The notes under the pieces were generated by a model. It saw only the letters and a program-made list of their open reading frames with translations, ran no database searches and was not told where the DNA came from. This document shows positions 339 to 31,117 of a stretch of DNA of 64,000 nucleotides, in pieces. This stretch comes from Zootoca vivipara (lineage: Eukaryota). Where the stretch lies: NCBI RefSeq assembly GCF_963506605.1, contig NC_083290.1:6076001-6140000 (forward strand), in the 5' to 3' direction. Numbering within the stretch: the first letter of the stretch is position 1; each line of letters opens with the position of its first letter. The translations under genes were made by a program, and so were the position numbers.

Positions 339-399
339 CCTCTGAAGCGGCTGCAGCAAAATACAGTGAGAGCAGAACGAGGGAATTCAGGAATCCCAT
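339..399 (-). CDS. CA4: First coding exon (signal peptide) of a carbonic anhydrase 4-like gene; rest of gene lies before the window start
   Basis: ATG at 399 reads MGFLNSLVLLSLYFAAAASE+G, a hydrophobic signal peptide, ending in a phase-1 donor G|GTGAGT. This matches the structure of mammalian CA4 exon 1. Car4 lies head-to-head with Znhit3 in mouse. No catalytic-domain sequence is visible, so identity rests on synteny and exon structure. Confidence 0.6.
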
Positions 400-4359: not shown

Positions 4360-7300
4360 ATGGCAACCGACAGCAGCTTCTCGCCATTCAAACCAGCATC
4401 AGGAGACTGGGAAGGGTACGCCGCCCGTTTCAACTTCCTCCTGCAAGCAAAAGAAGTCACCAACGATGCCATGAAGAGGGCGACATTCTTCAGCGTCTGT
4501 GGAGAGGAGACGTTTGAAATCGCCCGGGCTCTCCTTGCACCTAGAGATGTCGCTACCGTCTCTTACAAAACAATAATGGAACGGCTGAAGGAGCACTTCT
4601 CACCACAGCCCTCGGTGGTAGCTTGCCGAAATGCCTTCTACGCAAAGCGGCAAGCCCCGGGGGAAACCATAACTGGGTTTGTGACCTCCCTCCGCCAAGC
4701 CGCCCGGTTATGCAACTTCTCAGAGTTGGAGAACATGCTTCGTGACCGCCTCGTCGGTGGCCTGAGGGACGAGATGTTGCAACGACGCCTCTACGCCAAA
4801 AAAGACCTCACGTTCCAGATTGCTCTGGAGGAAGCCCTGGCAACCGAAGCCGCCGAGAGGTCAACGCAAGAGGCACGACCGGCCCCGCCATCCCAACCGA
4901 GGGTCTACCACGAAGACCTCACCGACGAATCCGAATCTGACAGGGAGGAAGTACACCGAGTACAGCGGCGCACTCAAGCAGCACACACACCACAGCAGCC
5001 TCGACGAGAAGGAGGGAACTGTGCAAGCTGCGGGGAGAACCACGAGAGGAGGACCTGTCGTTTCCGCAACGCAGAGTGCAGGCAGTGCAGAAAATTGGGA
5101 CACATCGCCCGGGTGTGTCGGGCTCAACTCACCCGTCGACAAGCATCAGATGACCGACCCAGGAGCCCCAGGTCACACGGCACCATGCACCAAGGCAACT
5201 CGACGGAGATCACGGACTACCAGGTATTCCAGTTGCCCCATCCCAGCACAGAGAAAATTTATATAGAGGTACAGATAGAGGGAGCCCCATGCCGCATGGA
5301 GCTGGACACAGGTTCAACTCTATCCATAATCTCGGCCCGAACATTAAGGGAACTGTGCCCTAATGGGGGTCCCAAACTAAGGCCGGCCCCATTCACCCTC
5401 CGGGACTTCCAGAAACGTAAGGTCCCTACAATGGGGGTGGGGACCTTCAGGGTGCAATATCGAGGGCGAAAGCAACAATTGGACTTGCTGGTAGTTAAGG
5501 GCCCCTACGTTAGCTTACTGGGACTGGCATGGTTTGGACCTCTGGGGCTAGCCGTTACCGGGGTGAACCGCACTAGCTTACAAGTGGACGTGGACGCCAT
5601 ATGCAAAGAGTTTCCAGGGGTTTTCGATGGGGCATTGGGACGATATACAGGACCCCCCATTGCCCTACAGCTAGACCCCGCTGTACGACCCATCAGGCAC
5701 AAGGCCCGCCGGGTCCCGTTCGCCCTGAAACCCCGCATAGACGAGGAATTGGACCGGCTCGTGGAGCAAGGAGTGCTGGAGCCGGTGCCCAACTCCCCCT
5801 GGGAAACTCCAATTGTCACACCCGTCAAGCCTAACGGTTCGGTCCGCATCTGTGCAGACTACAAATGCACCATAAACAAGGCTCTCACGGCCCATGCATA
5901 CCCAGTGCCAGTGGTCAGCCATGTCCTCGCCACCCTGGCTGGGTCAAAAATCTTTGGCAAACTGGACTTGGCCCAAGCGTATCAACAGTTGCCTGTGGAC
6001 GAAGCCACAGCAGAGGCTCAGACGATTGTGACGCACAGAGGGGCATTCAGAGTAAAGCGGCTGCAATTTGGCGTTAGCGTGGCACCAGGCATATTCCAGA
6101 ATCTAATGGACTCTCTCCTTAAAGGGATTCCTGGCGTCACCCCCTTCTTCGATGATGTACTGATCGCCGGGGCCACACCAGAGGAATTTGAGGACCGCCT
6201 CCGCTCCGTCCTGCACCGTTTCCAGACGGCGGGCCTCAAGGTGAAGCGGGAAAAGTGTTTACTGGGAGTGCCGCAGGTGGACTTTCTGGGATTTAAGGTG
6301 GACGCAGAAGGGGTCCATCCAACCGGTGACAAGGTACGGGCCATTTGTGAGGCCCCAGCGCCCAAGAGCAAGCCCGAACTTCAGTCATTCTTGGGACTAT
6401 TGAACTTTTACCATGCCTTCCTTCCCCATAAGGCAGCGGTAGCGGAGCCCCTACACAGACTCCTAGATAAAAGGGCCCCTTGGGTGTGGGGCCAGCGACA
6501 AAGGGCCGCATTCCAGGCAGTCAAGGACTTGCTCGTCTCGAACTCTGTCTTGGCACACTTCGACGAGAGGCTGCCAGTGGTGCTGGCATGCGACGCCTCT
6601 CCCTATGGCATCGGCGATGTCCTGGGACACCAACTCCCGGATGGAAGAGAGGTGCCGGTGGCATACTTCTCCCAGACGCTTGCTGCAGCCGAACGAAACT
6701 ACTCACAGATTGACAAGGAGGGTCTGGCAATCGTGAAGGGCGTAAAAAAATTCCATGATTTCTTGTACGGGCGGCCCTTTACCATAGTGACTGACCACAA
6801 GCCGTTGCTTGGCCTGTTTGCCCCCGAGAAGCAGACCCCCCAAGTGTTGTCTCCACGTGTCCTCAGGTGGTCAATTTTCCTTGCCGGCTACCAGTATGCA
6901 CTAATCCACCGCCCTGGGAAGGCGATGGGCCACGCAGACGCCCTCAGCAGGCTACCACTACCAGAAACAGGCCCCGACCCAGCGCCTGCGCAAGAGGTTA
7001 TGACCCTGGAGCTGCTTCCCGACCGACCCATTCAGGCACAAGAAGTTGCGCACCATTCCACAAAAGATAGGGTCATCTCCCGGGTCCTGGACTGGGTGTG
7101 GCGAGGATGGCCCAGCAGCAGCCCCGGGCCAGAATTCGCTGGCTACACAAACCGCAAACATGAACTGTCGGCCCACAAGGGGTGCCTGTTATGGGGAAGC
7201 AGGGTTGTTGTTCCCCAGCCCCTCCGCAAAAGGGTCCTCACAGCCCTACACGAGACACACCCAGGGGTAGTGAGGATGAAGGCCCTTGCCAGGAGTTATG

Positions 7301-8430
7301 TGTGGTGGCCGGGGATTGACAGAGAGATAGAGGCCTGGGTCCAACACTGCCAGACCTGCCAAGAATCCCGCCCGGATCCCCCAAGGGCCCCAGTCCAGCC
7401 CTGGGAGTCCGCCCGACAACCATGGTCACGCTTGCACGTGGACTTCGCTGGCCCCTTCCAGGGAAAAACATTCTTCATAGTGGTGGATTCCTACACCAAA
7501 TGGCTGGAGGTCGCACTGGTACCGTCCACTTCTACGGCGGCAGCCATCCGGGTACTACGTAAGCTGTTTGCAACCCACGGGCTCCCTGACACCCTCGTCT
7601 CGGACAATGGAACCGCATTCATGTCAGAGGAGTTCCAGACCTTCACAGCGCAGAACGCCATCCGCCACATCCGCTCAGCACCATTCCACCCTGCCACCAA
7701 TGGCCAAGCGGAGCGCATGGTGCGGACCACCAAGGACAGCCTCCGCCGCATGACACAAGGGGACTGGGAATACCGCCTTGCCGCATTTCTTCTAGCACAG
7801 CACAGCACCCCAAGCACAACGACGGGCCGGAGCCCAGCTGAACTACTTATGGGCCGGCGCCTTGCAACTAGACTGGACCGACTTCACCCCGACAGAGCTC
7901 AGGATGAGGTAGTGGTGGGGAAAGGCAGGAACTCCCGGACATTTGTGGCCCAGGACCCAGTGTATGCAAAGAATTTTGGGGCAGGCCCAGCATGGGTACC
8001 CGCCACAGTCACCAAGGTGACCGGTCCCGTGTCGTACGAGGTACTAACGGAAGGGGGGCAATGTTGGCGCCGCCACTGCGACCAGCTACGGCGACGATTC
8101 CCAGGAGGAACCCGGGAGGAGAGCAGGACAGAGGGGTCCCAAGGGGACAGCAGGGCAGTGAGGCCTGTAGAGCGAGAGGGGTGGGCAGGGGAAGCAGAAG
8201 CAGTAGGCACAGAGGGGCGCCCCGAGGCTGGAAGGACACCGGAACCAGAGCCACAACCTAGTGGTTCAGTGGCGCCAGACCAGACAGCCCCGGCACAGCC
8301 AGCAGCCTCGGAACACGAGCCAGAACCAGAACCCCTGACCAAGGAACACCCCAGGCCACAACGCACACGGAGGCGGCCAGCAGACCTTGGGGACTACGAA
8401 TGCAACTTCCCGGGCAGGACTGGAACTTAG
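4360..8430 (+). CDS. Gag-Pol polyprotein, 1356 aa
   Basis: Two Gag zinc knuckles (CASCGENHERRTC, CRQCRKLGHIARVC), protease LDTGS, RT (KLDLAQAYQQ, LQFG, FFDD), RNase H (DAS...NYSQIDKE...TDHKPL), integrase HHCC plus D(HVDF)-D(SDNG)-E(AERM), and an SH3-like C-terminus. Confidence 0.96.
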   Translation: MATDSSFSPFKPASGDWEGYAARFNFLLQAKEVTNDAMKRATFFSVCGEETFEIARALLAPRDVATVSYKTIMERLKEHFSPQPSVVACRNAFYAKRQAPGETITGFVTSLRQAARLCNFSELENMLRDRLVGGLRDEMLQRRLYAKKDLTFQIALEEALATEAAERSTQEARPAPPSQPRVYHEDLTDESESDREEVHRVQRRTQAAHTPQQPRREGGNCASCGENHERRTCRFRNAECRQCRKLGHIARVCRAQLTRRQASDDRPRSPRSHGTMHQGNSTEITDYQVFQLPHPSTEKIYIEVQIEGAPCRMELDTGSTLSIISARTLRELCPNGGPKLRPAPFTLRDFQKRKVPTMGVGTFRVQYRGRKQQLDLLVVKGPYVSLLGLAWFGPLGLAVTGVNRTSLQVDVDAICKEFPGVFDGALGRYTGPPIALQLDPAVRPIRHKARRVPFALKPRIDEELDRLVEQGVLEPVPNSPWETPIVTPVKPNGSVRICADYKCTINKALTAHAYPVPVVSHVLATLAGSKIFGKLDLAQAYQQLPVDEATAEAQTIVTHRGAFRVKRLQFGVSVAPGIFQNLMDSLLKGIPGVTPFFDDVLIAGATPEEFEDRLRSVLHRFQTAGLKVKREKCLLGVPQVDFLGFKVDAEGVHPTGDKVRAICEAPAPKSKPELQSFLGLLNFYHAFLPHKAAVAEPLHRLLDKRAPWVWGQRQRAAFQAVKDLLVSNSVLAHFDERLPVVLACDASPYGIGDVLGHQLPDGREVPVAYFSQTLAAAERNYSQIDKEGLAIVKGVKKFHDFLYGRPFTIVTDHKPLLGLFAPEKQTPQVLSPRVLRWSIFLAGYQYALIHRPGKAMGHADALSRLPLPETGPDPAPAQEVMTLELLPDRPIQAQEVAHHSTKDRVISRVLDWVWRGWPSSSPGPEFAGYTNRKHELSAHKGCLLWGSRVVVPQPLRKRVLTALHETHPGVVRMKALARSYVWWPGIDREIEAWVQHCQTCQESRPDPPRAPVQPWESARQPWSRLHVDFAGPFQGKTFFIVVDSYTKWLEVALVPSTSTAAAIRVLRKLFATHGLPDTLVSDNGTAFMSEEFQTFTAQNAIRHIRSAPFHPATNGQAERMVRTTKDSLRRMTQGDWEYRLAAFLLAQHSTPSTTTGRSPAELLMGRRLATRLDRLHPDRAQDEVVVGKGRNSRTFVAQDPVYAKNFGAGPAWVPATVTKVTGPVSYEVLTEGGQCWRRHCDQLRRRFPGGTREESRTEGSQGDSRAVRPVEREGWAGEAEAVGTEGRPEAGRTPEPEPQPSGSVAPDQTAPAQPAASEHEPEPEPLTKEHPRPQRTRRRPADLGDYECNFPGRTGT

Positions 8431-13770: not shown

Positions 13771-15711
13771 ATATCGGGAATATGCTGCAGCATCAGTTAA
13801 ATAGCTTTTGATAGTTACTAGCCATGATGGCTCTATATACACTGGGGGTGCTGTGGCCCTCCAGACCTTTTTCTCTGGCCCTTGGAAACTCCCCCCACGC
13901 CACTGCTCCACCCCACCCTCTTTGGGTGCTTTTGCCTGGCTGGAATGGGTCCTTGAACTGTGATAATGTCTCTTGCTTCCCCGGAGGGAGGACGGACAGA
14001 TGTGGGGTGTTTGTGTAGAAATCTCTGACTCCTGTGTGGCAGGAATATAGCCCACTGTACAAAAACAAAATGTAATTAATTCTCTGCTCTGTCTGCTTTG
14101 GCCCACTTAACTAGCTATTGGCATGTGGCCCTTGTGGAGGTTGGCAATGAGGGAATGCAGCCCTCAGATGGAAAAATCCTCCCCACATCTGATTTATATA
14201 TGATGTCTCTGAATACGAGTTGCTATGGATCGCAAGCGGGACGAGTGGTTAGCGTTAGCCTCTGTGGGAAACAGGATGTCAAACTGGTCGGGCATTTGGT
14301 CTAATCCAATAGGGATCTTCTGATGTACTTAATCTCTTGATCAGCTAAGATCTGTCCAATGAACCGGGCAACAATTTCCCTTTTTAAAACAATTAACATT
14401 TAAAGAAAAGACAAGTGTTTATAAAAGGATATTTCAGAGCTAGAAAAGTTTCAGAAAAGGGTATGCGATGTGATCTGGAGCAACTTTCTGAGGCGAGGTC
14501 ACCGAGTTTGGTGCTTTTTAGTTCAGAAGAAAATATGAGCAATGGGTGGGGATGTAATAGAGGTTTGCAGAATTGTGCATGGTGTGAAGAAAGAGAGAGG
14601 CTTCTCTCCCTCTGGCCTCGTCCACATTTCCGCTCTTGTGCCATATTTTATTCTGCAGAAAACCCGACTGACATTTGTTACCACTCAGCAGCAAACAGTG
14701 GGTTTCTCCATGGAAGGTGGCAGGGCAAACAAAAAATCTGAGACAAGTGTGGATGACCATTCTCTCTCATAATATTAGGCCTCAGGAGCATCTAAAGGTT
14801 CAGGACAGACAAAAGAAATGTCACACAGTGCATGGTTAAACTATTTAATTAAGCCAACTTAAGTGGCTTCGAAAGAGGATTAGACAAAATCAAGGAGGAC
14901 AAGTCTTACTAGCCACAATGGCTGTGCTCCACCCCCTCTGTTGGAGGCAGTAGGCCTTGGAATTCCAGTTTCCGAGAATCACAGGTGGGGAGAAGAATGT
15001 TGCATTCAGGTCCTTTTGTGGGCTTCTCATAGGCAGAGGAAAGTCAGAGGTGGCACCTCTTGCTTTTTATGGCCTTTCATCCCTGATCCTAATCCTAATT
15101 ACTGAAAGAAACAACAATATGCTAGGGCAATTGAAATCCTGTAGTGGCATAATAAAACCTTTAATGTGGGTTGAGACCTAGACAATGAGAGTCAAATGTG
15201 CAGTTTCATGCAACCAGTGAAGTAGATTCTAACTCACAAAAATCTTATTCCTCAGTCATGCTGAACTTTATAAAATAATTGTAGAAGGCAATATTTTATG
15301 GTTTATTATTGTTTATATTTTGAACACCAAAATCTTTTAAGGGCCTCTAAAGGTCTTCATCTGCCCATGATTACAAGGCTCAAAGCCTACCTGATGCCAA
15401 TAGGATTTCCAAGGTGCAGGTGTTGCCACAATAAAAGATTAACTAAAAGACATCCATGAGAGGGGGCACTTCATCTTGTCCTGTAACTCTTCTCAGTTGG
15501 ACAGAGGTTCTCTGCAGTGTCCCAGGCCTCTTCCTAGGAAGAGGACTCCCTGTGAGCTGGATCAGGCAGGACCCGGACACGCAAGACAGGCTGATTCATG
15601 CTGAAAAAGTAGTGCTAAGTTATCTATGTCATTAGAACTACACCCAAAGGAAGAAGCATTCAGCATTCCTCCACCCACATTCAACATCTGTTGTTGATAT
15701 GGTGCAGAGTG

Positions 15712-15910
15712 AAGGAGCCATAGCTCACTGGTAGAGCATCAGCTTTGCATGCAGAAGGTCACAGGTTCATTTCCTGGCACCTCCAGGTAAGGTTTGGGCT
15801 GCCCCTGTCTGAAACCCTAGAGAGCTGCTTCCTGTCAGTGTAGACAATATGCACTAGGCTAAATGGACCACCAGTGGTCTGATTCAGCATAAGGTCGTTT
15901 CCTATGTTCC
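15712..15910 (+). mobile_element. tRNA-derived SINE
   Basis: gccatagctcactggtagagc...caggttca (A/B boxes) and the same body and tail as other copies. Confidence 0.7.
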
Positions 15911-16335
15911 ATACACTCTTGTGCGTATCTTTGCCTTCTTAGGGGGGCTCAAAACTTGTTTTTTACTTCAAGTAAAAGCACGGAGCTCACACAGATTGGC
16001 ACTTGCATGGTTGGGATGAGCCTAGCTGATTGGTAGAGCCCCTGCTTGCATGCAGGAGGTCCCAACTTCAATCCCTAGCAGCAGCTGGTGGAGATGGAAA
16101 TGACCCCTGTCTGAAACCCTCGGCAGCTGCTTCTGGTCAGTATAAACAACACTGAGCTGCGTGGCCAATACCGGTAGGAACATGGGCAGCCGCCTTGCAC
16201 TGAGTCAGCCCAATGGCCTATCTAGCTCAGCTTTATCTATCCTGGCTGGCAAGGACTCTGCGGGATTTCAGACAGGGAGCCTTTCCAGCCTTACCTGGAG
16301 AACCCAGGGTTTAAACCTGGGACCTTCCTTTAGAG

Positions 16336-16471
16336 CAGGCACCCCCAAACTTCGGCCCTCCAGATGTTTTGGACTACAATTCCCATCTTCCCCGGCCACT
16401 GGTCCTGTTAGCTAGGGATCATGGGAGTTGTAGGCCAAAACATCTGGAGGACTGCAGTTTGGGGATTCCTG
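16336..16471. mobile_element. 136-bp hAT-type MITE
   Basis: CAGG...CCTG terminal inverted repeats, internal palindrome, perfect 8-bp TSD CTTTAGAG. Confidence 0.88.
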
Positions 16472-16499
16472 CTTTAGAGTTTGTTATGATGGTTTACAG

Positions 16500-16635
16500 C
16501 AGGTATCCCCAAACTTGGCCCTCCATATATTTTTGGACTACAATTCCCATCATCCCTGACCACTAGTCCTGTTAGCTAGGGATGATGGGAGTTGTAGTCC
16601 CAAAACATCTGGAGGGCCAAGTTTGGGGGTGCCTG
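16500..16635. mobile_element. 136-bp hAT-type MITE (second copy)
   Basis: Same family as 16336-16471; perfect 8-bp TSD GTTTACAG. Confidence 0.88.
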
Positions 16636-17431
16636 GTTTACAGCCTGAGAGGGGAAGAAAGGGGAAATGGAAATGAACATATTTAGCTCCCAACACTTTC
16701 ATACTGTCACATAATGACTGATGGCAGGGCAGTTTTGGAAGGGAGATGCCTAGGGATGGGCTGTCTCAGCCTGGCTGATGGAGTGGGCCTTGCTGCCTCA
16801 CCTCTCCTGCTGCAGCATCCAGAGGGAATGGCCACGGAGGGAAGCCATTCTTCAGAGAGGAGGAGCTACAGATGGGTGAATCTTCCATTTTCTGCTTCTC
16901 TCAGTTTCTCGGTTTCCCAGTCTTAAATTCAGTTCCCCACATCTCCAGATCAGTTTGCGGATTTATTTATTTTTTATTAAAAGTAATTGTGAAAGCTCAC
17001 CAGAGTTTTAGTGCACATTTCCCCTAACAATACATATTTTCGCTTGCAGTTTTGCCTTTGTATACAATTTTTTGCAAAGCAATTTCCCCCCAAGATAGTG
17101 CAATTTTTAAAAATGATACAGTCTTTCTGTGAATATGCATTTGTATGCACACTTTACCGAAAGCTGTGCATTTTTGTACACATTACGTGGCTGGAGAACT
17201 GCAACGCAAAATTCAGAGGAAGTGTGCCTTTTTTGTTGTTGTTTTAAAGAACTTTATTTTCAACTTGTTTATTGCTTCCATGATATTCTTTATAAAAAGT
17301 AACAACTGATACATAATAAAAACATTAATAAACCCACCAATACAAGATCAAAGAGTGACGTTTCTTGTATATAACTTTTCACCAAGCCTAATGCTATGTT
17401 TATTGGAGAGGAAGTGTGCCTTTTGAATGAA

Positions 17432-17449
17432 TGATAGATAGATAGATAG

Positions 17450-17487
<38 letters not shown>
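17432..17487. repeat. (ATAG)n microsatellite
   Basis: Tetranucleotide run with one interruption. Confidence 0.9.
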
Positions 17488-18261
17488 CTTTATTGTCATT
17501 GTACATAGTATGAGTTTCCATTCCCATCTTATTTCGGAAAGTACAAATTAGGTAAGTTCGGCTTTAATGGAAGTGGAATCACATTTCTTCCTTCTCCCAA
17601 GTCCCAACCAGGCTGATGGAGTGGGCCTTGCTGTCTCAGCTCTCCCCCTGCTGCCACCCGGTAGAATGGCAGCTGACGGAGGCAGATCTGGGCTAGGAAG
17701 AACCAAAAGGCGGCCTCCTCCCCAACAACTAACAAGTTTGCAACAGCCATAGAAACAGCAAGGATAACCACATAGTTCCATGATCAAGGCCGGCCCTACC
17801 ATTAGGCAAAGCAAGATGTCAGGTGGGGATGGGGGATAGTGGTGGCAAGTGGTTGGATAAGAGAACTGTGGGTGCCCCATAGAGCCTGTCCTGCAGCTGT
17901 TTCCCATTGGGACTGGTAGGGTGGCAGACAGGGAGCCCAACAATAGTGGAGCCAGAGCCAATGACAAGTGGAACTGACTCTGGTTTTGTCCCCATCTTCC
18001 TCCCTGCTGGGCAATACTGAGACTAAGGAGGAGGAAGCCAATAGCCAGTGACACACTCTGGCTGGTTGTGAGTGGGGGACTGCCTGAGGGCCAACTGTGC
18101 TTGGTGAAGCTTTGCCCCACTTGCCCTGTAGATCCAACCGTCCCTGCCTGCACCCTCCAAGCTAGCCTGCTGACCTCTGATACAATCAAGGATGCTGCCC
18201 CATTGCCAGTGTTGAAATAATATTCACCTGCACAATGCACATGCCACGAGGGATGCCACCA

Positions 18262-18462
18262 TAGGAATGTAAGAAGAAGTCTCATACTGAGCCAGATTGT
18301 TGGTCCATCCAGCTCAATATTGCCTACACTGACTCGCAGTGGCTCTCCACCATTTCAGACAGGAGTCTCTCTCCCAGCCCTACCGGGAGATGCAGCCAGG
18401 GATTTAATCTGGGATCTTGTGCATGCAAAGCGGATGCTTTACCACTGAGCTTACGGGCCCTT
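18262..18462 (-). mobile_element. tRNA-derived SINE
   Basis: Reverse-complement copy of the SINE at 15712. Confidence 0.65.
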
Positions 18463-21400
18463 CCCATCTCATCATCCTTCACTGCTTCTCAGCTGGCAAA
18501 AAGTCTCGGGCTGGCCATGTACAGTCACACAGTCATCTCCCCACTGGGGACTGGCATTTCCGTGGCTAGTGGCTGCCCCTCATATATGCACAGATCATTT
18601 AGCACAGCTAAGGGCAGTGTCTCGCTCTGCCCGCACGCCTGTGCCTGCCAAGAAGATCACAAGCACCGCCAGATCTGACAGCCCGAAATCGCCATCATGG
18701 GGGAAGAAGGATTGAATCCTGGCTGAAACTGAGACTGGGCAAAGCCTGTCAAACAAAGAGCTCACATCAATTCTCTAGGCTTCCATTTGCCTCGTGGGCT
18801 GGTGTGAGGAAAGCCAATTTAAGTCCTGCATGGATCAAGGCAGCCCAGAACTGAATCTCACGTCCCTTGGAATAGGACATGTCAACAGCAGCACCTTTGC
18901 TGTCATTGACCATTGACAGGGAGCAGGGAACCGGAGGCTCAAGAAGATGACTCAGTTCTGGTATCCAAGTTGTGTCTCTAATCAAACTCGTTGCCAGCCC
19001 TGTGCCCTGTCCCAGAGAGTTGCGAGAATTGTCTGAGGATCCTAGGAAAATGCCTTATTGTTGGCCAGACCATTTGTTCAGCTTGCCCAGTACTGGCAGG
19101 CAGCTCTGACCGGCAGCAGCTCTCCAGGGTTTCAGGTGGAGAGGTGGACTGTCCCATCGCTTGCTACTTTATGTTTTTAACTGGAAACGCTGGGAATTGA
19201 ACATGGGGACGTCTGCATGCTAAGCAAGTGCTTGACAACTGAGCTAAGGTTCCTACCCACTTTGAGCCTGTTGATACACCTCTGACCACAAGAGAAATGT
19301 TTCTAACAGACTTTCAGGTGCTGGCCCGTTGACCAACTCCTGTTAACTGAACAGGAAATTAGATTGTTCCAAAACAAAAGTGGAATTTTTGGTTGCCTCC
19401 CAGTGTATACAAAGGTGGAGCTTGAGCAAGGGGCTTGGAGCAACATTATTGAAACATTGAACTGTGGCTTGGTGCTACGTCTGAAGTAGGAATGGGAACG
19501 TAATGACTATGTATTCAGCAGAGAGAAGGGCACCTGGATTCCTTGTAAAAATAGAAAATACTGCATTCAGATAATCTAAACTGATTTAAGGGCCACATTA
19601 CTCCATTGGAAAGCTGTTGGGGGCCACATTACAGTAGGGGGCTGGAGGCCAGACTTGCACACAATCACACACGGTTAACACAAGTGCAAGCTCTAAATGC
19701 TCTGCAGCCAAGTAATGTGGACAAAAATGCATGTGTACTGCAAAATATGCATGGAAGCTCAAAACATTAGTGAACATAACACACAAAAATGTGTTATATT
19801 AGGAGAAATTGCTTTGGAAAACAGTGCTGCATAAATTTTCATGAGGACTTTAAAAACCTGCATCGGAACCTGATGTGGAAATGGGGAGGACTCAAAACTG
19901 GAAAAATGAGAAAGCGAAAGAAGCCAACATTGACAGAATCCCGCACCCCCACTTACAGAGAATCCCAGTGGGCTTCTCTTAATGTGGTTTCCCTACCATG
20001 ATTCTGCTTGCAATAATCTGAGCAAAGACGCTCCCCTTTGTCATCGTCCCTGGTTTGAATCAGAGGAACACCAGCCCTGCCCTGACCCCCATTCTGCATG
20101 CCCTTCGACAGAATTACCTGTGCATACAGCTGTGGCCTTTGTATCTACATGGAAAGGTACATGTGTTTATCTCTGCATGTCCCCCTTAACAAAGAAGTAA
20201 CCACAATCCTTATCGCAAGGCTCACCTCTCCCTGCTGTAAAACAAGTTTTATGGTCTGGGCAGACTGTCCTCTTGCTTATCCAGAGAGATGGAGATAATT
20301 CTGGAGAAGGATCCAGTGACATCCCTGGCAATAAACTGCAATTGAAAAGGAAGTGGGAGGTTGGGGGGAAATTGTATCCAATGGGTCATTTCAGAGGAAC
20401 AAAGTTTGCGGATGTGAAGTCTAGAGATAAGAAACAGAGAGGTGATCTTGGCAAATGGCTTCGATGCACGTAGGCCTTTAAGCTTCTCCCACACTCCTGT
20501 CCTGATAAAGCAGGTCAACCTGATTTGTGTCAGGCTCTGGGCTTAATGACCTCAGGTGGCCAGTTCCACAACTCTTCAGCCAGCGAGTACAGCTGTGGGG
20601 TGCTGAATGCAGATAAAGTAAATAACATTTATTTTAAAATCTTCGTTCTGATATTATGCTTCCGTTGTGTTTTCAGGCGTGGGGGACCTGTGGCCCAGAT
20701 ATTGCTGGAGTCCCAACTCCCATCAGCCCCAGCCAACTTGGCTGATGGTCAGAGCTGATGGGAACTGGAGTCCTAGAGGGCCACAGGGTCTCCACCCAGG
20801 TTCACATAATGAAAATCCATGTTTGGTTTTTTTTTCTTGCCAGTGTGAGGAGCTGGGAAAATGAAACAAAGAACGCTGATAAACAAAATTGTAAATAGAG
20901 AAGAATGCATTAGTGCAACTAAAAATAACACAGAATCCTGCAGTAGGGCTGTAACTGCAATCCTATACACTGAACTCAATGGGTCTTACTTCTGAGAATA
21001 GACATTAGAGTGACCACCTAGGCATCATTTTAAAAAGGAGATACATGTTTGCAATCAGAAGAGAGATGGTTGAGGGCTTCCATTTGAAACAGCGCCCTCT
21101 CCTGTCCTAGTGCAGTATGTGCAAACCCACCCACTTTCTCTTTCTTATTCTAGGTGTCTGGAGATTTTGGATTTCTCAAGAGCCCTGAAGATTTGCTTTG
21201 CAACTAATAATTATGGACATTGGCATGGTATCATTCCATCTACTTCTGATGCACAAAGGTGTGTGTGATTATAATTATTTGGTCAAAACAGCATCAGTCA
21301 CACTCAAGAATGGGAGGCATTAGAGCATATCACAAACTTTTTTGGGGGGGGAGAAATCCTAAGGGGGAATTCCCCACCTCAGAAATAACTCAGTGAGCAT

Positions 21401-22818
21401 GCTCAGTTATCACAGAATGTTGACTATCAGGGGAAAATATGGATATCTAGAGAAACTGCATACAAAAATTGGTGTACTAGGAGAAATTTGCATTTAAATG
21501 CTAATGAATTTTGGTAATGACTTTAAAAAAACCTGTCATGGAAATGTGGAGAACTGAAATTAAAAGTGGAATAATGAGAAACTGAGAGAAACCCAAATTG
21601 ACAGATGCCTTCATCCTTATGTAGTTCACATGGTTAAGATTCTTACTGCAGGCCCTCCAGATCTTGTTGGACTACAAAGCCCATCATCCTTAATCATCGG
21701 AAATACCGTACTAGTTGGAGTTGATAGGAATTTAGGTCCAGCAACACCTGCAGGGTGACAGCTTCCTCATCCCTGGCTTAAAGCTTCATTGCTGCAGATG
21801 GCAGGATCTGAACCAATGGGTTCAAACAACAAAAAGAGGGGATTCTGGTGAAACATTATGAAGAAATTCCCAATGGTATGAGCTGTTTGACAAACTGGAA
21901 CAAACTATGTCAGTGGGTGGGTGAACTCTCCCTTGTTGGAGCTTGCTCAGCAAAGGTTGGAAGGCAGATTTCCTGGGATTGGATTAGATAACCTTTGTGG
22001 CGACTTCCAACTTTACAATCCTCTCTTTATCTATCTGCGTCTAGCTATCTGCTCTTGGCATTTCTCTCTTATCTATCTAGACATCCAACCATCCATCCAT
22101 CTTTATCCCCATCTCTCTCTCTTCAAGAGGCTTAATGTTTGGCAGTTAATTAACGCAATTCCAGTGTAGGCGTCCAAGATGAGATTTGAGATGGAGAAAA
22201 CCACACAGAGAGATTACAGGGAGCTTATTAGATGCATTTGCTACCTAGGACCATCCTAGCAACCTCAGGGTTGGGAGCCATCACCCTGAACTAATAACCA
22301 AAATGTTTTGACGCACAGGAGTTAACGTTTAACCCACAGCTTGGGTAGTATTCTGGAAAGCAGAAACCTGTTGTGTTCAACCCCCACCCCCAACGCCTTG
22401 GAGCCACAAAGCCTGAGGGCACCCAACTTTCCATCCAGCTTTGGACTGTAGGCTATGGGAAGAAAAAGAGCGATCATTTAAAAGCTTGGCGTGTTGTCAT
22501 TGGGAGTCACTGGAGCTAGAACCAGGTCTCAAAGAGCTCTGGGAGCAGCTTCCTGATGTGGTGAGTGACCATACCTTGCAATATTTTCTAAGGCAGCGTA
22601 AGAATCCTCAGATTCTGGACTGGACCTCCCAGCACCCAGGTTGCCGTTAGCCCCTCCTAGGCAGAAACGGCGGTAGAGGTCTCTGTGCTTAGACTGAGAT
22701 TTTGCCAGAGCAACAACTAACTTCCTAGCCCTGACTCCTGCCTTTGACTCTTGGCTTTGCCTTGCTGGCTCCTGCTCCCCTCTGATCGCTTCCTGATTGA
22801 TTTGGCCTGACCCTCACC

Positions 22819-23784
22819 ATGATTAAGCACCAGAGCTGCCTCAACCGCACCACTCACGTTTGGACTAGTCACCTGGTGCTTTCCTTGGGTGCCCCTCAGC
22901 TGACCATCTCCTTAATCTCCGTCTTCTTCAACTCTGCCGTCATCTTTGCCGTGGTGTGCTCCAAAGAACTGCACAAGCCCATCTTCATCCTTTTCTGCAA
23001 CATGGCCTTCTCTGACCTCTTCACTAGCTCTTCAGGCTTCTGGATCGCCCTGTTGTTCATCACCAACCCTCAAAGTACCACCAGTGGGTCCAAGGAACTC
23101 CTCACAGCGTATGCCTTCTACGCCATGTCAATCCTGGCCACCATCTACAACTTAGTTCTCATTGGGATTGAGCGTTACTTGGCTGTGGCAGAATGCCTGA
23201 GGAGAAGATGGTGGCTTGGCAGGAACCAGATCCTGGGCATGGTGCTGGGTGTCTGGGGGCTTGGCTTCTTTTTGGGCTTCCTGCCCCTGATGGGCTGGAA
23301 TTGCTTGGATGGAGAAAACGCCTCTTCCCTTTACAGCCCTCTGTGTATCAACTACCTTATTTTCATAACTATCCCTCACTGTGCAGTGGTTTTGGTCCTC
23401 CCTTTCTTCACCTACTGCGGCATCATTGGGTTTTTGAGGAAACACAAGATGGCAATGGGTGCCTTGGGGCAAACCCATGCCTCCTACAGGCTGGCTGAGA
23501 TCCAAGTAACCCGGACAAGTATATTCATCTGGCTGCTGGCTATGCTGTCTTACACACCCTTCTTTGCTGGCGTTGTCCTGGATATAACCACTCAGCAGTG
23601 TCCCAACAATTTCTCCATGGGTGTCTACGTCTTCCGAAACCTTACCGCCATCATGATCACCATGAATTCGTTGGGGAACCCCATCATCTACACCCTGAAA
23701 GTGAAAACTTTGTGGCACAGACTCAGGTTTTTGAAGTCCCCTTCCAGCAACCGCATAGAAGTGCAGGCCATTGGGAAAATGTGA
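22819..23784 (+). CDS. Intronless orphan class A GPCR, EDG (S1P/LPA)/cannabinoid/GPR3-6-12-like, 321 aa
   Basis: Kozak-like caccATG; seven hydrophobic segments; N1.50 (FFNSAV), NMAFSDL (D2.50), ERYLAV, W4.50, LPLMGWNC family signature, P6.50, NSLGNPIIY; no C3.25; N-terminal NRT sequon. Confidence 0.9.
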   Translation: MIKHQSCLNRTTHVWTSHLVLSLGAPQLTISLISVFFNSAVIFAVVCSKELHKPIFILFCNMAFSDLFTSSSGFWIALLFITNPQSTTSGSKELLTAYAFYAMSILATIYNLVLIGIERYLAVAECLRRRWWLGRNQILGMVLGVWGLGFFLGFLPLMGWNCLDGENASSLYSPLCINYLIFITIPHCAVVLVLPFFTYCGIIGFLRKHKMAMGALGQTHASYRLAEIQVTRTSIFIWLLAMLSYTPFFAGVVLDITTQQCPNNFSMGVYVFRNLTAIMITMNSLGNPIIYTLKVKTLWHRLRFLKSPSSNRIEVQAIGKM

Positions 23785-25679
23785 CCCTGCTCAGACACTG
23801 ACCAAAGCAAATCCAGTCTTGTACGTTTTCACCCAAACATCTTTAAATGTCCGCATAGAGTAGTCGCTGAGAGTTCAATCCTATGCATGTCTACTCCGAA
23901 GTTCAGTGGGATGCATTCCCCAAGGACATGTGTTTAGGACTGCAGCGTAAATCACTTTATAAGGGCCACGGGTAGCTGGCAGTTACAGAGATCTGATTTG
24001 TTTCAGCTCACCAAAGCGAGCCAGCTTCAGCACTGTATAGCACTGGACAGTTCTCAAGTACAAGGGAGAGGGAGATTTAATTCATCGGCTCTCCTATGGA
24101 CAATACTGTAGAATTGTGCTACCTACACCTTGGTAGCATTCATGAACAGGATCGTGTTGGGTAGAAATTATTTACTGTGAACTAACTTCAGAGTGAGTTA
24201 TTAGACAGAAGAATTTCGATTAGTGGTTTAAAAGGTTCACACCACCCTCCTTATGATTAGAATTAACAGCAACATTCCAAACTTCATGCAGTACAGAAAG
24301 TTTGGCAAGTGTAACAGGAGTCTGGGAAACACTAGTTTAATGTAATTATATATACATATATATATGGACTGATTAAAATCTTGTTGTTGATTGAAAAAAC
24401 ATATTAAGATAGGGTGAAAAATAAATGCTACATCAAATTGTATGTGATGCAAGGTGACTTTGGATAATGTGCTTTCTTATGGAACAATCTGGGGCAGCCT
24501 TTGGCAGCGTGGTAGCCTCCATATATTTTGGACTACAACTCCCATTGGCCTCAATCAGCATGGCTATACAGTGCGGGGCTGATGGAAGTTTTAAGTGCAG
24601 AACATCTGGAAGACACCAGGTTGGCAAAGGCTTCAGCATGAATAAAACTCAGCTGAGAAACCTCAACCAATATGTGTAGCAGAACTGGAAAATCTCATGC
24701 AGCAATTCATCTACTAAAAATCAGACCCCATTGGGTTCAATGGGATTTACTCAACAAGCAGAGCAGCCTTAGAAGGATTTTGTGTGTGTATAAAACCAAT
24801 GTAACATCAGAGCCAACTGGGAAGGCTTTGCAGTGTTTGCTTTGGCATGACATTAATAAAATGCAATCCTTCCTTTTAGTATCGTTAACCTTTCTCTGAG
24901 CAAAGCCAAGCTCACCACATTTAATTTAATTCACTGGTACATCAATGCACAGGAGATAGTGCTGTTTCACAATGTTTACAGAAGGCAAACATTAGCATTT
25001 TTATGTAGCTTAGCTCCATCATCTGGCCTCAAAGGCCTCAAAGAATACACACACATGCACACATATATCCTGGTTTTGAACACATTGGTCACCCAGTTAT
25101 TTTTCTGACTGCAACTTGTTTATTTCATAAAATTTACATCAGTTGATTGTGAGAAACTGAAAAGCAGTTTATAACAAAGAAAAACAACATCATTATCACT
25201 AAGAAAAATTAATAATAAATAAATTTAATTAATAAAATAAAATAAAGATAAATAAATAAAATAAATAAAATTAATTTTTTGAATAACAAGACTAAAACAG
25301 ATTAAGAAAAACAATAAAAAATATATCCTGCTTTCCTTTGTCATAAACTTATGCAGCTTATGTAAGACTACAAAATCATTAAAACATCAAAGATTCCAAA
25401 ATGCACAATCAGTTTACAGCTTATAATGATGATGTAATAGTAGCAGTAGCAATACTACTGAGTATTAATTATTTATTTACTTACTTTGTCCAGCCAAAAC
25501 CATTACAAAAGATAAAATATATAAAATAGAATAAAATACATAACAGTTAAACAAATGATTAAAACCAGACATTGTGTCGGATAAGAGTTTGCACACCTGA
25601 ATAATATAACAATATCGTCTGTAATTATACCCTGCTGTTACTCTAGGTTCATCTTGGTCCGGTCCAGTATTGTCTTCTC

Positions 25680-26699: not shown

Positions 26700-27175
26700 C
26701 TCCCGCCTGCACTGGGGCTTAATCAGAGCGTGCAACACAGCAGTTCTCAGCCATTGCAATCGAGCGCGATCCTGTTTCGAATGGATGCAGGAGCAGGAGG
26801 CGCGGCCTATCGATGGGCTCGGGCGCTCTGCTGGCTCGGCCTAGCCCCAGATCCTCGCCGGCCAGGAAGGAGACGCACGTGGGAGATCGGGCAGCAGCGT
26901 CCGCCATGCAGAGGCCGGGCGGCTCCCGTGTGTGTGTTGTGTGCGGGGAAGGCGGGCGGGGCGGCGCCAAGTACCGCTGCCCGGGCTGCCGGGAGAGATA
27001 GTAAGTAGCGGGCCGGTGCAAGCAGCGCCCCCCGGGAACCCTTTGGTGGGCTCCGGTTTCGTAGGGACGGAAGGCACTCTGTGTGTGCTCAGAGGTGGTT
27101 CTGCGGGATCCTGTGTGTGCTCAGAGGCGCAGCACGAGGGCTGAGGGGGTGGGGAGCTCAATTTTTGTCGCGAAA
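26700..27175 (+). promoter_or_regulatory. CpG island / ZNHIT3 promoter and exon 1
   Basis: High GC and CpG density around the ATG at 26906. Confidence 0.8.
26906..27000 (+). CDS. ZNHIT3: ZNHIT3 coding exon 1
   Basis: gccATG; [31 protein letters not shown]; donor GTAAGT. Confidence 0.92.
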
Positions 27176-30100
27176 CTGTATGGGGTTACAGCCTCAAGGG
27201 TGAAAGAGATCCTGTGTTCGCTTCGGGGTGTGGGCAGTTACCGCCCCCAGTGGTGGTTTTAAAAAGTGTTGGACAAGGTCCTGGGAGCCGAGGGTTCAAA
27301 TCCCCACTTAGCAATGAAGCTCCCTTGGGATCACATCCACACCCAAGTATTTTGAAGCGCATGACTCCCCCATCCGTCTCGGAAGAATCATTAGCTCATT
27401 GTTGATTGAGCTCATGTGCGGTTCGTACTTAAAATCAGTCCCTAAGGCAAGTAAAAAGTAATTAAATAGCAAAGGTGAGTAATATAAGAAGTGGAATTCC
27501 GTGTACACTTCTGGCCCCATCACGTAGGGGAAAAAAAGTTGGGGAAAGTTCAAAAAAGGGCAACCAAAAGGGGGGGGGGAGACACTCCCCTAGGAGCAAA
27601 AGTCACAGTATTTGGGACCTTTTAGGCAAGTAAGAGGCGTCACAATAGTCATTTATAAAATTATGCATGGCATGGAGAAAGTGGCTGGAGAAATCCCCCC
27701 TCTCCTTTCATAACACTAGAGCTTGTGGATGGTCATGGTAGCTGAATGTTGGAAGAGGCAGGACAGATAAAAGATAGGACTTCTTTGCACAGCATGTAGA
27801 AGTCACTCCCTTGATGGCCACCAACTTGGATGGCTTTAAAAGAGGATTGAACAAATTCATGGAGGATGAGGCTATGCATGGCGATGCAGCGCTACTATAC
27901 AATTATACAGCTGAGAAGTGGCTTATATATAAAGGAGACCGTTTTTGTGGTCCTGCTCATTGCCCGTCATGCACTGACCTGCTGCTATACTATGAAGGAG
28001 TTACAAGTGTTTGGTTTTAACACACATAAAAAAATTCTTTCAGTAGCACCTTAAAGACCAACTAAGTTTTTATTTTGGTATGAGCTTTCGTGTGCATGCA
28101 CACTTCTTCAGATACACTTTCGTGTGCATGCACACGAAAGCTCATACCAAAATAAAAACTTAGTTGGTCTTTAAGGTGCTACTGAAAGAATTTTTTTCTT
28201 TTGCTTCGACTCAGAGCAACACGGCTACCTACCTGTAACTAGTTTTAACACACAGTTATCTTACTCTTGTTGATGTTGCAAAATTTTCAGGAGTAGCCAA
28301 CATGGTGCACTCCACATGTTGCAGACTTCAACTCCCATCATCCCTATTTTGCCATGGGAATCCAAAACATCCAGAAGGCACCGAGTTGGCCACTCCTGCA
28401 TCTTATTATTTTACGTAGTATAAACCATTTTTTGAGAAAGGGCAATTTGTATAAATAATGAGCCGTGTTTTGTGCAGCGGTAATATAAGGAGCCTTTGTG
28501 GTGTGATAATGGTGTCGAGCTTAAGACTTGGGAGACCTGGGTTCAAATTCCCCCCTCAGCCATGAATCTGACTGGGTGACTTTGGGCAGGTCACACTTTT
28601 TCCATCCTGATCTACCTCACAGGTTTGTTGTGAGGATAAAATGGTGGGAGGGAAGAGAAACACCATATAGTGTTTGAACTCCTTGGGAAAGAAGTAAATG
28701 TCTCCACTTAAAAAAGCTTCTCTTTGTTCTTGCAGTTGTTCAGTGTCCTGCTGCAGGAAACATAAAGGTAGGATTATATATTTTTAAATAATGACTAGGC
28801 TTCCTTGAGTAATTTGCGAGTGTGGGTATATAGTGTACTTTTGTGGTATACCATACTTCATGATGGATGGCTACTTTTTGGTCACAACAATGCCAATGTT
28901 CAGGCTGCGAGTGCTGTTGCATTTTTAGCCAAAATGGCCTCCTCCGTGCACAAAAGTGGTGTTGGTGGACTTAAAAGCCTGGGGTTTTCAGAAATAACAA
29001 TAATATCCCAAAACCTTAGTTTGGGTGGTGGTGATGAAATAGTTAGAGCCTGGGAGATTTGAAGGTGCTGCCAGAAGAGGTCCATATTGCCTCTAACCGC
29101 CGGCAAAGCTGGAATTATACTTGATAATCTGATGACATTTGTTATTTTAACTCATGTGCAACTGTACTCATTCTATTGTTTTCCATATTTTAATTTGCCG
29201 TCTGTTATAATTGTTCTGTTTTATATATATACCAGTATTATAAAATGTCGGGGGTGGAAAGAATATATGGCGGGGGCAATCTTAACCCAAAAGAATGGCC
29301 TCAACCACTCGCTTCCCTTGGCTTGGATGTAATGAGATGTGTTTGGTGTTTGAACAGAACAATGTGCACCCAAAGCAGAGCCGCGTCTGGAGCCTACAAG
29401 TCAAGAAACTTCCCAGAGGACGGCATCCATGAACAATGAAGGTATTTGCACCCTTTCCAGCTTGCTTGCAAAAACAAACAGGCTTTTTATTGGCATCGAT
29501 ACTTGGGGGTCATACTGAGGGAAGAGACACAGTTGAGTCAGAGCATCATAAGGACCCTTTTGGATCAGACTAAAGTTTCTTCTAGAACAGTATCCCGTCT
29601 TCCCATTGTGGCTGAGTGGCAGGTGACAAAGGCACCATAGACTGATTGGGTACCAGCCCTGGCACTTTTGCTGGCACTACTTTGTTCCTGCTTTTTTCTC
29701 AGGACATTCTTGGTCAGTGGATGACATTTTGACAGAAGAGGATGAAGGCGATAAGGTGCCCCTGCAGAAACTTCGGCTCTTGGGTAAGTTTTCCAGTGGA
29801 AAATATTATGAGTTTTCCCTGTAAAACAGGGATGGGGGAGCTTACTATTTTTGGACTACAACACCCATCATCCTAACCACCTGCTTGCTGTGGCTGATGG
29901 GAGCGGCAATCCCAGTAGCCATGTGGAGGGTGTCTGGTTGGTTATTCCTACTATAAAGAAATTCCTATGTGTGAATTGAAGCAGTTGGTTCATAGGTGAG
30001 CAGATGACCCTGAGATTGTTATTTTATGGGTAGGGGGGGGGCACCACTGCTTTAAGAATCCACTGTCTGATTTCATGCCCAAAGTTCCTGAATAGCAGGG

Positions 30101-31117
30101 ATGGGGAGCATGTGACCCTCCCAGATGTTGTCTTTCTGTCCCTGACTGGGTGCGTGGGACTGATCAGACTTGGGACCACAGCCCCCCCCCCCATAAGCCT
30201 TTGTCCAGTATTTTCTGCTAAAATAAAATAATAATACATTGAAAGTACAGATAAAAAACAATCAAAATTACAAGGCTCAGGAGCAGCACAAAAGGTGTAT
30301 TTTTTAAATAAACAGATGGCAGATAACGTAGAAAAATGAAAGCAACAAGGCACATCATGAAAACTAAATGATGCAGTTTGTTGGGGGAAGAGTTTGTATA
30401 CCTGAATTTGACATATTAGAAATGAAATCCCACCAAACAGCATAGAAATGTTCTGGATCTTACCCTTAGAAATATGTAATTTGCACATTGTTTCCTCTGC
30501 AATAACCAAATTCCACATATTTGGGAGGGCGGAGTGAGAGGTTTAAGTACTGTAGTGTCTTTGCTCTCTGGGCCAAATAAGACAATATTGTCTGCTCCCG
30601 ACAATTGCTCTTCAGGGTCTTGGGGCAGAAAGTGGTTTTCCCCATCATCTCTTACCTTAGGGATGGGGAACCTTTGGCCCTCCAGAAGTGGCTGACCATT
30701 GGCCCTTGCTGGCTGTGGCTGATGGGAGGCCCAAGAACAGCAGGATGGAGACATGTTCTCAGGCCCTGTGTTATTTCATCTGGAGATGCTGGGGATTGAA
30801 CTCTGGGCTTTCTGGATGCAAAGCCAGCACTCTACCCACTGAGCTCCAGTCCTTCTCGAAAGGATGAGCAACAGTCGCCAAAGATCTTCCCACGCTCCTT
30901 GGAGTCATCTCCCTCTTTTTCTGAAACAGGGGAATCTGAAGAACTCAAAGGCCTCCTCCTCAATCCCCACCTCGGCCAGCTGCTTCTCACTGTCGACCAG
31001 GCCAAAGACAAGAGTGCCGTCCTGAAGAAATACATGCAGGAGCCCCTCTTTGTGGAGTTTGCAGACTGTTGCCTGAGGGTTGTTGAGCCTCCCGAGGAGA
31101 ACGAATGCCCAGAGTGA
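26906..31117 (+). CDS. ZNHIT3: Zinc finger HIT domain-containing protein 3 (box C/D snoRNP assembly factor), 5 coding exons, 159 aa
   Basis: join(26906..27000,28736..28767,29358..29441,29703..29783,30930..31117) = 480 nt, all introns GT-AG, frame preserved. zf-[25 protein letters not shown]; C-terminal LLNPHL...[14 protein letters not shown]; adjacent to MYO19. Confidence 0.95.
28027..28241. mobile_element. Penelope-like element remnant (inverted pseudo-LTR pair)
   Basis: About 75-bp inverted arms (cagtagcaccttaaagaccaactaag... / ...cttagttggtctttaaggtgctactg); flanked by a 13-bp direct repeat GTTTTAACACACA (28014-28026 and 28242-28254). Confidence 0.8.
28078..28115 (-). ncRNA. Minimal type I hammerhead ribozyme motif (Penelope-associated)
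   Basis: GUAU-CUGAAGA-A-GUGUGCAUGCACAC-GAAA-GCUC^AUAC: stem I GUAU/AUAC, CUGAnGA and GAAA core boxes, hairpin stem II, palindromic AGCU in place of stem III. Confidence 0.7.
28490..28700 (+). mobile_element. tRNA-head SINE with L2/MIR-like body
   Basis: gggagacctgggttcaaattccc...ctgggtgactttgggcaggtcac...tacctcacagg...gttgtgaggataaaatgg; similar copy at about 61725-61890. Confidence 0.6.
28736..28767 (+). CDS. ZNHIT3: ZNHIT3 coding exon 2
   Basis: ttgcag| (Y)[10 protein letters not shown] |gtagga; 32 nt. Confidence 0.92.
29358..29441 (+). CDS. ZNHIT3: ZNHIT3 coding exon 3
   Basis: [28 protein letters not shown]; AG/GT boundaries, phase 1-1. Confidence 0.85.
29703..29783 (+). CDS. ZNHIT3: ZNHIT3 coding exon 4
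   Basis: [26 protein letters not shown]; donor GTAAGT. Confidence 0.9.
30930..31117 (+). CDS. ZNHIT3: ZNHIT3 coding exon 5
   Basis: [14 protein letters not shown]...[27 protein letters not shown]. Confidence 0.93.

Follow-up and report, generated by a model that had tools for sequence, protein, structure and literature searches.

The lipid receptors of the MECA cluster are among the best-studied families of drug targets, and the vertebrate members are generally taken to be complete. An intronless open reading frame of the lizard Zootoca vivipara, found in a 64,000-nucleotide stretch of contig NC_083290.1 (henceforth the window, from whose first letter positions are counted), raises the question of whether that set lacks a member and, if so, what such a receptor might sense.

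An intact class A receptor frame beside ZNHIT3

The frame runs uninterrupted from an ATG in a favourable start context to a TGA (Table 1). When the 3 kb around it were shuffled, none of 300 permutations gave a stop-free run of this length, the longest reaching 216. The encoded protein matches the Pfam profile 7tm_1 (E 7.6e-27), and its AlphaFold2 model, built on a 114-row alignment, contains seven long helices plus a helix 8 at a mean pLDDT of 79. Profile and helices together place the protein in class A, and this single 321-residue frame bears out the first-pass annotation of the DNA, which had proposed an intact, intronless seven-transmembrane receptor. A search of the ESM Atlas returned nothing beyond generic class A clusters.

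The gene is not entirely new, contrary to the initial description of it as undescribed: its chicken orthologue is catalogued as ggMECn1 in supplement files 2 and 3 of Lagerstrom et al. (2006, PMC1472694), and we use the name MECn1 throughout. Four of five alignment-derived motif strings match the ggMECn1 record, and its sequence agrees lengthwise with the bird orthologues (by eye, unaligned). The catalogue lists ggMECn1 as Rhodopsin A and complete, and its name assigns it to MECA (PMC1472694). The main text of that paper, figures aside, never mentions ggMECn1 and gives no range, synteny, pocket analysis or function for it. No functional or evolutionary study appeared among the matches listed in our literature search, which did not extend to preprint supplements or to journals behind a subscription. 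A survey of 90 vertebrate genomes from 2019 gives, in its MECA section and table, seven non-human clades, none with the range of MECn1 (PMC6504862). Three MECn1 motif strings sought in the supplement on the Xenopus repertoire (PMC2709155) gave two failures and one unrelated match, in a PDF whose line breaks could mask a hit.

Residues were numbered by gap-free counting outward from motif anchors. In the alignment of 114 orthologues, which omits many fragmentary bird sequences, models that were long or chimeric, and the gar, knifefish and bowfin rows found afterwards, N1.50, D2.50, E/DRY, W4.50, Y5.58, P6.50 and NPxxY are retained in 96-100% of rows and CWxP is replaced by SYxP. On this count the motifs that had first suggested kinship with the EDG, cannabinoid and GPR3-6-12 receptors are all present (L at 3.25, LPLMGWNC and NSLGNPIIY). 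The same holds for the peculiarities noted in the lizard protein: Ala/Tyr at 3.28/3.29, with 3.28 varying within the family (P in 68 and A in 41 of 114 rows); S6.47-Y6.48-T-P6.50 in place of CWxP, the family consensus being SYAP (A in 87, T in 16 of 114); and a displaced cysteine in the second extracellular loop (ECL2), where 13 residues separate Cys162 from Cys176, as opposed to six in lizard LPAR1, LPAR3, S1PR1, GPR12 and CNR1. The N-terminus is short, as had been claimed, the modelled TM1 helix beginning at residue 17.

MECn1 lies where the first reading had put it, between a carbonic anhydrase gene on the left (reverse strand) and ZNHIT3 on the right (forward strand), the latter starting about 3.1 kb past the MECn1 stop codon on the same strand. 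The catalytic exons of the carbonic anhydrase gene lie 36-43 kb to the left of the window; two were compared with PDB sequences, one matching CA IV best and the other CA II/XII. A candidate exon 1 within the window would stand head to head with MECn1 at 22.4 kb, with the remaining exons left of the window; if it is correct, the first intron of this CA4-like gene spans about 34 kb (G000:C15 about 6042000). A weaker candidate for this exon lies at window 18285. On the forward strand, window 4360-8430 holds an uninterrupted 1356-aa gag-pol-like frame with reverse transcriptase, RNase H and integrase in Ty3/Gypsy order, GC- and CpG-rich relative to its surroundings, and is probably a recent LTR retrotransposon insertion.

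Table 1. Position of MECn1, its diagnostic codons and neighbouring features in the window
Feature	Position	Strand	Remarks
Candidate signal-peptide exon 1 of CA4-like gene	339..399	-	Best of 4 candidates by hydrophobicity; phase-1 GTGAGT donor
MECn1 coding region	22819..23784	+	Orphan GPCR of class A, 321 aa, without introns; chicken orthologue ggMECn1
Codon Y98 (3.29)	23110..23112	+	Tyr in 114/114 orthologues; Gln in LPA1-3, Glu in S1P1-5
Codon E227 (6.30)	23497..23499	+	E 113, D 1 of 114; predicted ionic-lock partner of R119 (3.50)
S-Y-T-P motif in place of CWxP (Y6.48)	23548..23559	+	S6.47, Y6.48, P6.50 each 114/114
Codons R273-N274 (7.35-7.36)	23635..23640	+	Each 114/114; sole conserved cation of the receptor's outer half
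AATAAA hexamers x3, candidate polyadenylation signals	24420, 24641, 24855 (24420..24860)	+	Sequence match only
ZNHIT3-like first coding exon	26906..27000	+	Zinc-finger Cys pattern, CpG-rich surroundings
ZNHIT3-like second coding exon	28736..28767	+	ZNHIT3-like exon
ZNHIT3 C-terminal domain exon (ZNHIT3_C)	30917..31084	+	Pfam PF21373 E 1.1e-29; 78.6% identical to hoatzin model P0141

Raw RNA from three runs bearing the same species label (tissue unspecified, about 6% of each run read) gave zero depth over the MECn1 frame in all three. Mapping across window 14000-25100 revealed no splice joint or transcript end for the gene, the depth elsewhere being derived from repeats. A short repeat at about 16330-16630 attracts RNA reads and contigs by the thousand through partial matches; the element is interspersed and common, and smaller parts of it lie near 20700-21000 and 24500-24620. 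One further run, X1, which we only guess to be RNA, yielded a single exact 205-base contig within the frame at depth 3.

MECn1 is distinct from the lizard's own MECA-type receptors

When the lizard genome was searched with MECn1, a single copy emerged; of the 17 matches, the next in rank scored 71 bits (124 of 378 candidates were scored). The paralogues retrieved are those we take, from characteristic motifs and tree placement, to be LPAR1-3, S1PR1-5, GPR3, GPR6, GPR12, a GPR185-like gene, CNR1, CNR2 and an adorb-like gene, along with five melanocortin receptors (MCRs). MECn1 is distinct from all 19 retrieved MECA-type paralogues and 25-27% identical to the best of them. LPAR1-3 lie on other contigs and are each split by an intron in TM6, where MECn1 is continuous; all five S1PRs are located elsewhere in the genome, and GPR3, GPR6, GPR12 and the GPR185-like gene are four genes on other contigs. 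A profile of the MECn1 family scored the lizard proteins in the order LPAR1, LPAR2 and LPAR3 (128, 125 and 116 bits), S1PR1 (107), CNR1 (86), GPR3/6/12/185 (69-73) and the MCRs (51-63). The residue-by-residue comparison with these paralogues left out S1PR4 and four GPR3-type rows and took its TM2 values from the family alignment.

The similarity and phylogeny checks called for in the first-pass annotation thus leave MECn1 orthologous to no characterised receptor tested, as judged by genome search, trees and residues. Identity with lizard LPAR1-3, S1PR1-5, CNR1/2, GPR3/6/12/185 or an MCR was rejected, all of these being present as separate genes. GPR185/GPR12L, GPR186, GPR119B, GPR187/188 and S1PR6/7 were rejected on range, as far as the passages compared in PMC6504862 give it, or on clade. 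One further locus (L052) turned out to match the pattern by chance and fell out of the tree. The search also turned up an intact, intronless adenosine-receptor-like gene (L022, G000:C6:19082500-19084800), probably adorb/A2c, which served as outgroup.

MECn1 forms its own branch of the MECA cluster

The nearest relatives of MECn1 are the melanocortin, EDG, cannabinoid, GPR3/6/12 and adenosine receptors, which makes it a member of MECA. It also carries the signature of the lipid receptors in this cluster: Cys is not among the five commonest residues at 3.25, and C162 of P-x-x-G-W-N-C is kept in 108 of 114 rows. Among PDB sequences LPA1 matched best (85 bits), ahead of S1P5 (67) and GPR3 (49), and the top 10 Foldseek rows obtained with the MECn1 model were LPA1, CB2, CB1 and S1P1. 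By VIA-align, CB2, CB1, GPR6, LPA1, S1P1 and adenosine receptors tie within about 2 Z units, so the fold singles out no ligand class.

Trees were built from MECA-type rows only, which sets the outer boundary of MECA beyond their scope; GPR119 was absent, and a single adorb-like gene stood for the adenosine receptors. The MECn1 orthogroup is one clade at 100/100 in all three, on a long stem of about 2.5 changes per column, and its internal branching largely follows the species. Its sister differs from tree to tree: LPAR1-3 (74/87), CNR (65/9) or an amphioxus receptor (82/66), and in the last of these LPAR and S1PR are joined apart from MECn1 at 94/91. In none of the three best trees does MECn1 fall within the LPAR clade, whose support is 81/94, 100/99 and 100/99, and it and GPR3/6/12/185 are separate 100/100 clades in all three. 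Four AU tests rejected no alternative grouping: with LPAR (p 0.29), with LPAR1 (p 0.16), with GPR3/6/12 (p 0.075), or with LPAR once the bowfin row described below was included (p 0.079). Because the trees give differing sisters, the AU tests reject none and VIA-align ties, we rank MECn1 as a MECA subfamily of its own.

A further record, P0191 (ENA/Logan), is an EDG-like receptor that lies outside both LPAR and S1PR and carries K3.28-Y3.29; judging by it, Tyr at 3.29 may be old in this receptor radiation.

The orthogroup ranges from chimaera to marsupials

Searches of a collection clustered at 90% gave 139 matches with the lizard protein (120 listed), 41 with that of the wombat and 119 with that of the sawshark, at 42-100% identity. 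The closest named proteins are from lacertid lizards (93-100%), and named rows cover squamates, crocodilians, turtles and birds, a newt and frogs, coelacanth and paddlefish, sharks, rays and chimaera, and marsupials. An exhaustive word-free search with the paddlefish protein returned five clusters at 332-192 bits before scores fell to 75.5, adding gar, sterlet and one teleost, a knifefish. Altogether more than 100 vertebrate sequences from chimaera to marsupials keep the frame open, with 31 invariant columns.

It had been supposed that the receptor was lost in mammals. Cluster look-ups contradict this, since seven named marsupial species have an annotated orthologue, and it is placentals that appear to have lost it. 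Among the named rows listed (at least 120 of the 139 in the lizard search, where 50% clusters may hide members) there was no placental, monotreme, lamprey or hagfish sequence, and absence from placentals, monotremes and jawless fish is likely on this sampling. We hold loss in placentals to be highly probable; losses seemingly were patchy, affecting placentals and most teleosts. Mouse Car4 and Znhit3 are presumably adjacent, with no receptor between them, a point on which a literature search found nothing.

ZNHIT3 is its neighbour elsewhere too. Two independent chimeric gene models, hoatzin P0141 and sterlet P0189, both publicly named ZNHIT3, fuse MECn1 to ZNHIT3_C. They place the two genes next to each other, on the same strand, in both a bird and a ray-finned fish. 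A real read-through fusion was rejected as a likely mis-prediction, the hoatzin and sterlet junctions being different.

MECn1 diverges quickly for a receptor of this kind: lizard and opossum proteins are 49.8% identical, compared with 96.0% for LPAR1 between lizard and hamster, and lizard and fish proteins 38-50%, compared with 59-64% for LPAR2, LPAR3 and S1PR5. The knifefish protein (P0190), the sole named teleost orthologue seen, sits on a long branch at 38% identity to the lizard and carries K7.35, D3.42 and G3.39 in place of R, N and T.

A bowfin protein labelled S1PR2-like (P0221, XP_066570723) scores 134 bits on the MECn1 family profile, more than LPAR1. It aligns with MECn1 at a probability of 99.7 and 25% identity, has MECn1 as its best match in the lizard genome (78.7 vs 74.6 bits) and joins the MECn1 clade at 99/98, both branches being long. 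It shares Y6.48, E6.30 and a K7.35-N7.36 pair with MECn1 and has an LPAR-like ECL2; a search of the lizard genome for its orthologue found none. From its sequence it is best read as a divergent paralogue and would be the second member of a small MECn1 subfamily.

We regard it as almost certain, as far as identity and age are concerned, that MECn1 is an intact single-copy member of a separate ancient receptor subfamily.

The pocket departs from those of LPA and S1P receptors

According to PMC8826421, the phosphate of LPA is held by Y34 and K39 of an N-terminal cap together with T109, T113, R124 and K294, and Q125 binds the ester carbonyl. MECn1 has no such cap: D2.50 is residue 66, as opposed to 75-77 in lizard LPAR1-3, which leaves the N-terminus 9-11 residues shorter, and no helix is modelled before TM1. 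Neither the R3.28/Q3.29 pair of LPA1-3 nor the R3.28/E3.29 pair of S1P1-5 is present, Pro or Ala being usual at 3.28 and Tyr universal at 3.29. The earlier view that the pocket is unlike those of S1P and LPA receptors is upheld by these three differences, and position 6.51 is Phe where LPA1-3 have Gly.

What MECn1 keeps is as distinctive. Y3.29, Y3.41, N3.42, a TM5 proline, W6.41, S6.47, Y6.48, R7.35, N7.36 and Cys176 are invariant in all 114 rows, D6.58 is present in 113, and 6.30 is acidic throughout. The protein also retains D2.50, E3.49-R3.50, Y5.58, E6.30 and NPxxY; contact between R119 (3.50) and E227 (6.30) is predicted by analogy with class A receptors. By class A convention, rather than from coordinates of the MECn1 model, positions 3.29, 6.58, 7.35 and 7.36 line the mouth of the pocket. 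R273 (7.35) is the only cation at least 90% conserved outside the cytoplasmic face, and in the knifefish orthologue, as in the bowfin paralogue, the R7.35-N7.36 pair is K-N. Through this invariant pair, overlooked at first, a TM7 cation of the EDG type is retained at the mouth of the pocket. Position 6.58 is adjacent to 7.35 in class A receptors, and R7.35 may form a structural salt bridge with D6.58 rather than anchor a ligand. Y6.48 and a small residue at 6.44 depart from the usual switch, and activation may differ accordingly.

The extracellular cysteines suggest two disulfides, of which one would join the N-terminus to ECL3. Each of the 114 rows has exactly two cysteines in ECL2, the first having moved in all six marsupial rows. 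Of 83 full-length rows, 82 of which carry an N-terminal glycosylation sequon, 73 have a cysteine in the N-terminus as well as one in ECL3, eight have neither, two have only the N-terminal one and none has only that of ECL3. The Fisher p of 1e-9 for their co-loss is inflated because just two independent events underlie it (cartilaginous fishes and one lizard). Gar model P0336, whose N-terminus is uncertain, is a counter-case, with the ECL3 cysteine and no N-terminal one.

Set beside known systems, MECn1 resembles LPA1-3 (LPAR1-3, EDG2/4/7) in giving its best sequence and Foldseek matches and in lacking C3.25 and having GWNC, E3.49, N3.42, D6.58 and a TM7 cation. It differs from them in its 25-27% identity, in lacking R3.28, Q3.29, D3.33, G6.51, W6.48, F6.44 and the cap, in having E6.30, and in being intronless whereas lizard LPAR1-3 are split in TM6. 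With S1P1-5 it shares the intronless structure, the ERY/H motif, GWNC, D6.58 and a bulky 6.51, but it is without R3.28-E3.29 and the cap, is 24-25% identical and forms a separate clade. CB1 and CB2 resemble it in their acidic 6.30 and missing phosphate clamp and head the VIA-align rows (Z 28-29, tied with GPR6, LPA1 and S1P1); MECn1 has a polar, charged TM7 face (R7.35 and N7.36 vs F and A), Y3.29 vs L, and ERY vs DRY. GPR3/6/12 and GPR185 (GPR12L, GPRx) are, like MECn1, intronless orphans of the MECA cluster, but they have DRY, W6.48 and T6.30 where MECn1 has ERY, Y6.48 and E6.30. GPR185 is likewise missing from placentals (PMC6504862, PMC8065388).

A candidate lipid receptor and competing explanations

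We propose, at about an even chance, that MECn1 is a G-protein-coupled receptor gated by a ligand, a single-chain lipid with a head group other than the phosphate of LPA or S1P. A disulfide between Cys7 and Cys261 would staple the short N-terminus to ECL3 and another between Cys162 and Cys176 would close ECL2, with no cap left to bind phosphate, and an R3.50-E6.30 lock would hold the receptor off. The acyl chain would enter the transmembrane bundle as in LPA1, S1P1 and CB1, and the polar head, most likely a carboxylate or amide, would be gripped by Y3.29, R7.35 and N7.36, while D6.58 would lie next to R7.35 or pair with it. Binding would shift Y6.48, break the R3.50-E6.30 lock and open the G-protein site. 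As to the head group, a carboxylate is a tentative choice that could well be wrong, and a neutral amide or monoacylglycerol is less probable still.

More broadly, and with more doubt than confidence, MECn1 and its bowfin paralogue can be viewed as a fifth vertebrate branch of the LPA/S1P/cannabinoid/GPR3 radiation. This branch would predate the split of sharks and bony fishes and sense a new lipid mediator at a site made up of Tyr3.29, Arg7.35 and Asn7.36 and switch through Tyr6.48, in an axis found in all jawed vertebrates except placentals. If so, pharmacology based on human and mouse would never have encountered MECn1, the axis being missing from placentals. That such a branch, with an invariant pocket of its own, is shared by chimaera and opossum points to the loss of a lipid signal in placentals.

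The competitor that survives best, though we consider it unlikely, is that MECn1 senses an external or non-lipid cue, for instance as a chemosensory receptor. The rapid evolution of MECn1 relative to its kin, its patchy losses and its near-absence from bulk RNA would all suit such a role. Tyr at 6.48 is reminiscent of the FYxP motif of odorant receptors. The MECA cluster offers a precedent in its adenosine-receptor relative adorb/A2c (PMC8462279). Against this, the lizard has a single copy, no expansion was seen among the matches listed, the nearest sequences are lipid receptors, and a pocket invariant across water and land species better fits one endogenous ligand.

Two other explanations are each less probable than an external cue. 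One is that MECn1 is constitutively active, raising cAMP without a dedicated ligand as GPR3/6/12/185 do. The first-pass annotation had raised this idea, but it is disfavoured by the acidic 6.30 of all 114 rows, where lizard GPR3/6/12 have Thr. CB1 has D6.30 too and shows basal activity nonetheless, which means that a lock does not exclude constitutive activity. MECn1 is, moreover, intronless, compact and of the same cluster, is altered at both 6.44 and 6.48, and could be grouped with GPR3/6/12 without rejection (AU p 0.075). The avian GPR3, GPR6, GPR12 and GPR12L have constitutive activity, according to PMC8065388. The family profile nonetheless scores GPR3/6/12/185 well below LPAR1-3 (69-73 vs 116-128 bits), and the invariant polar pocket points to a specific ligand.

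The other, about equally improbable, takes the database names at their word and makes MECn1 a divergent LPA or lysophospholipid receptor, possibly an old LPAR1 retrocopy. LPAR1-3 are indeed its top-scoring relatives; E3.49, N3.42 and D6.58 are common to both; Thr residues at 82 and 87 fall near T109 and T113 of LPA1; the TM7 cation has counterparts in K7.35 of LPA3 and K7.36 of LPA1; the bowfin paralogue has an LPAR-like ECL2; and the AU tests do not reject an LPAR grouping. Identity to lizard LPAR1-3 is nevertheless just 25-27%, R3.28, Q3.29, D3.33, G6.51, W6.48 and the cap are all altered, LPAR1-3 form a clade of their own without MECn1 in two trees (100/99), and the TM6 intron is missing.

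That MECn1 is a decaying retrocopy or pseudogene without function, as its lack of introns and of raw RNA reads in the three runs might hint, is extremely improbable and in effect refuted by the conservation of its open frame and 31 invariant columns in more than 100 vertebrate sequences, with the ZNHIT3 neighbour kept in bird and sturgeon and an exact contig inside the frame in run X1 (by our guess RNA).

MECn1 is widely mislabelled in public databases

MECn1 is an ancient and widely mislabelled subfamily that has been catalogued once, with no study found in the literature searched. Two facts weigh against its novelty: the gene was already listed in 2006, and orphan vertebrate receptors without a human orthologue are common, PMC6504862 reporting 28 new orphans. 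Public records name its members LPAR1, LPAR2, LPAR3, S1PR1, S1PR2, MC5R-like, GPR6-like and, in a turtle, TBX18, and anyone comparing true LPAR1 between species or studying its expression will be misled by these labels. Among bird records, dozens that bear the title LPAR1 protein or LPAR3 protein (partial, 281 aa) belong to MECn1 and to neither LPAR1 nor LPAR3.
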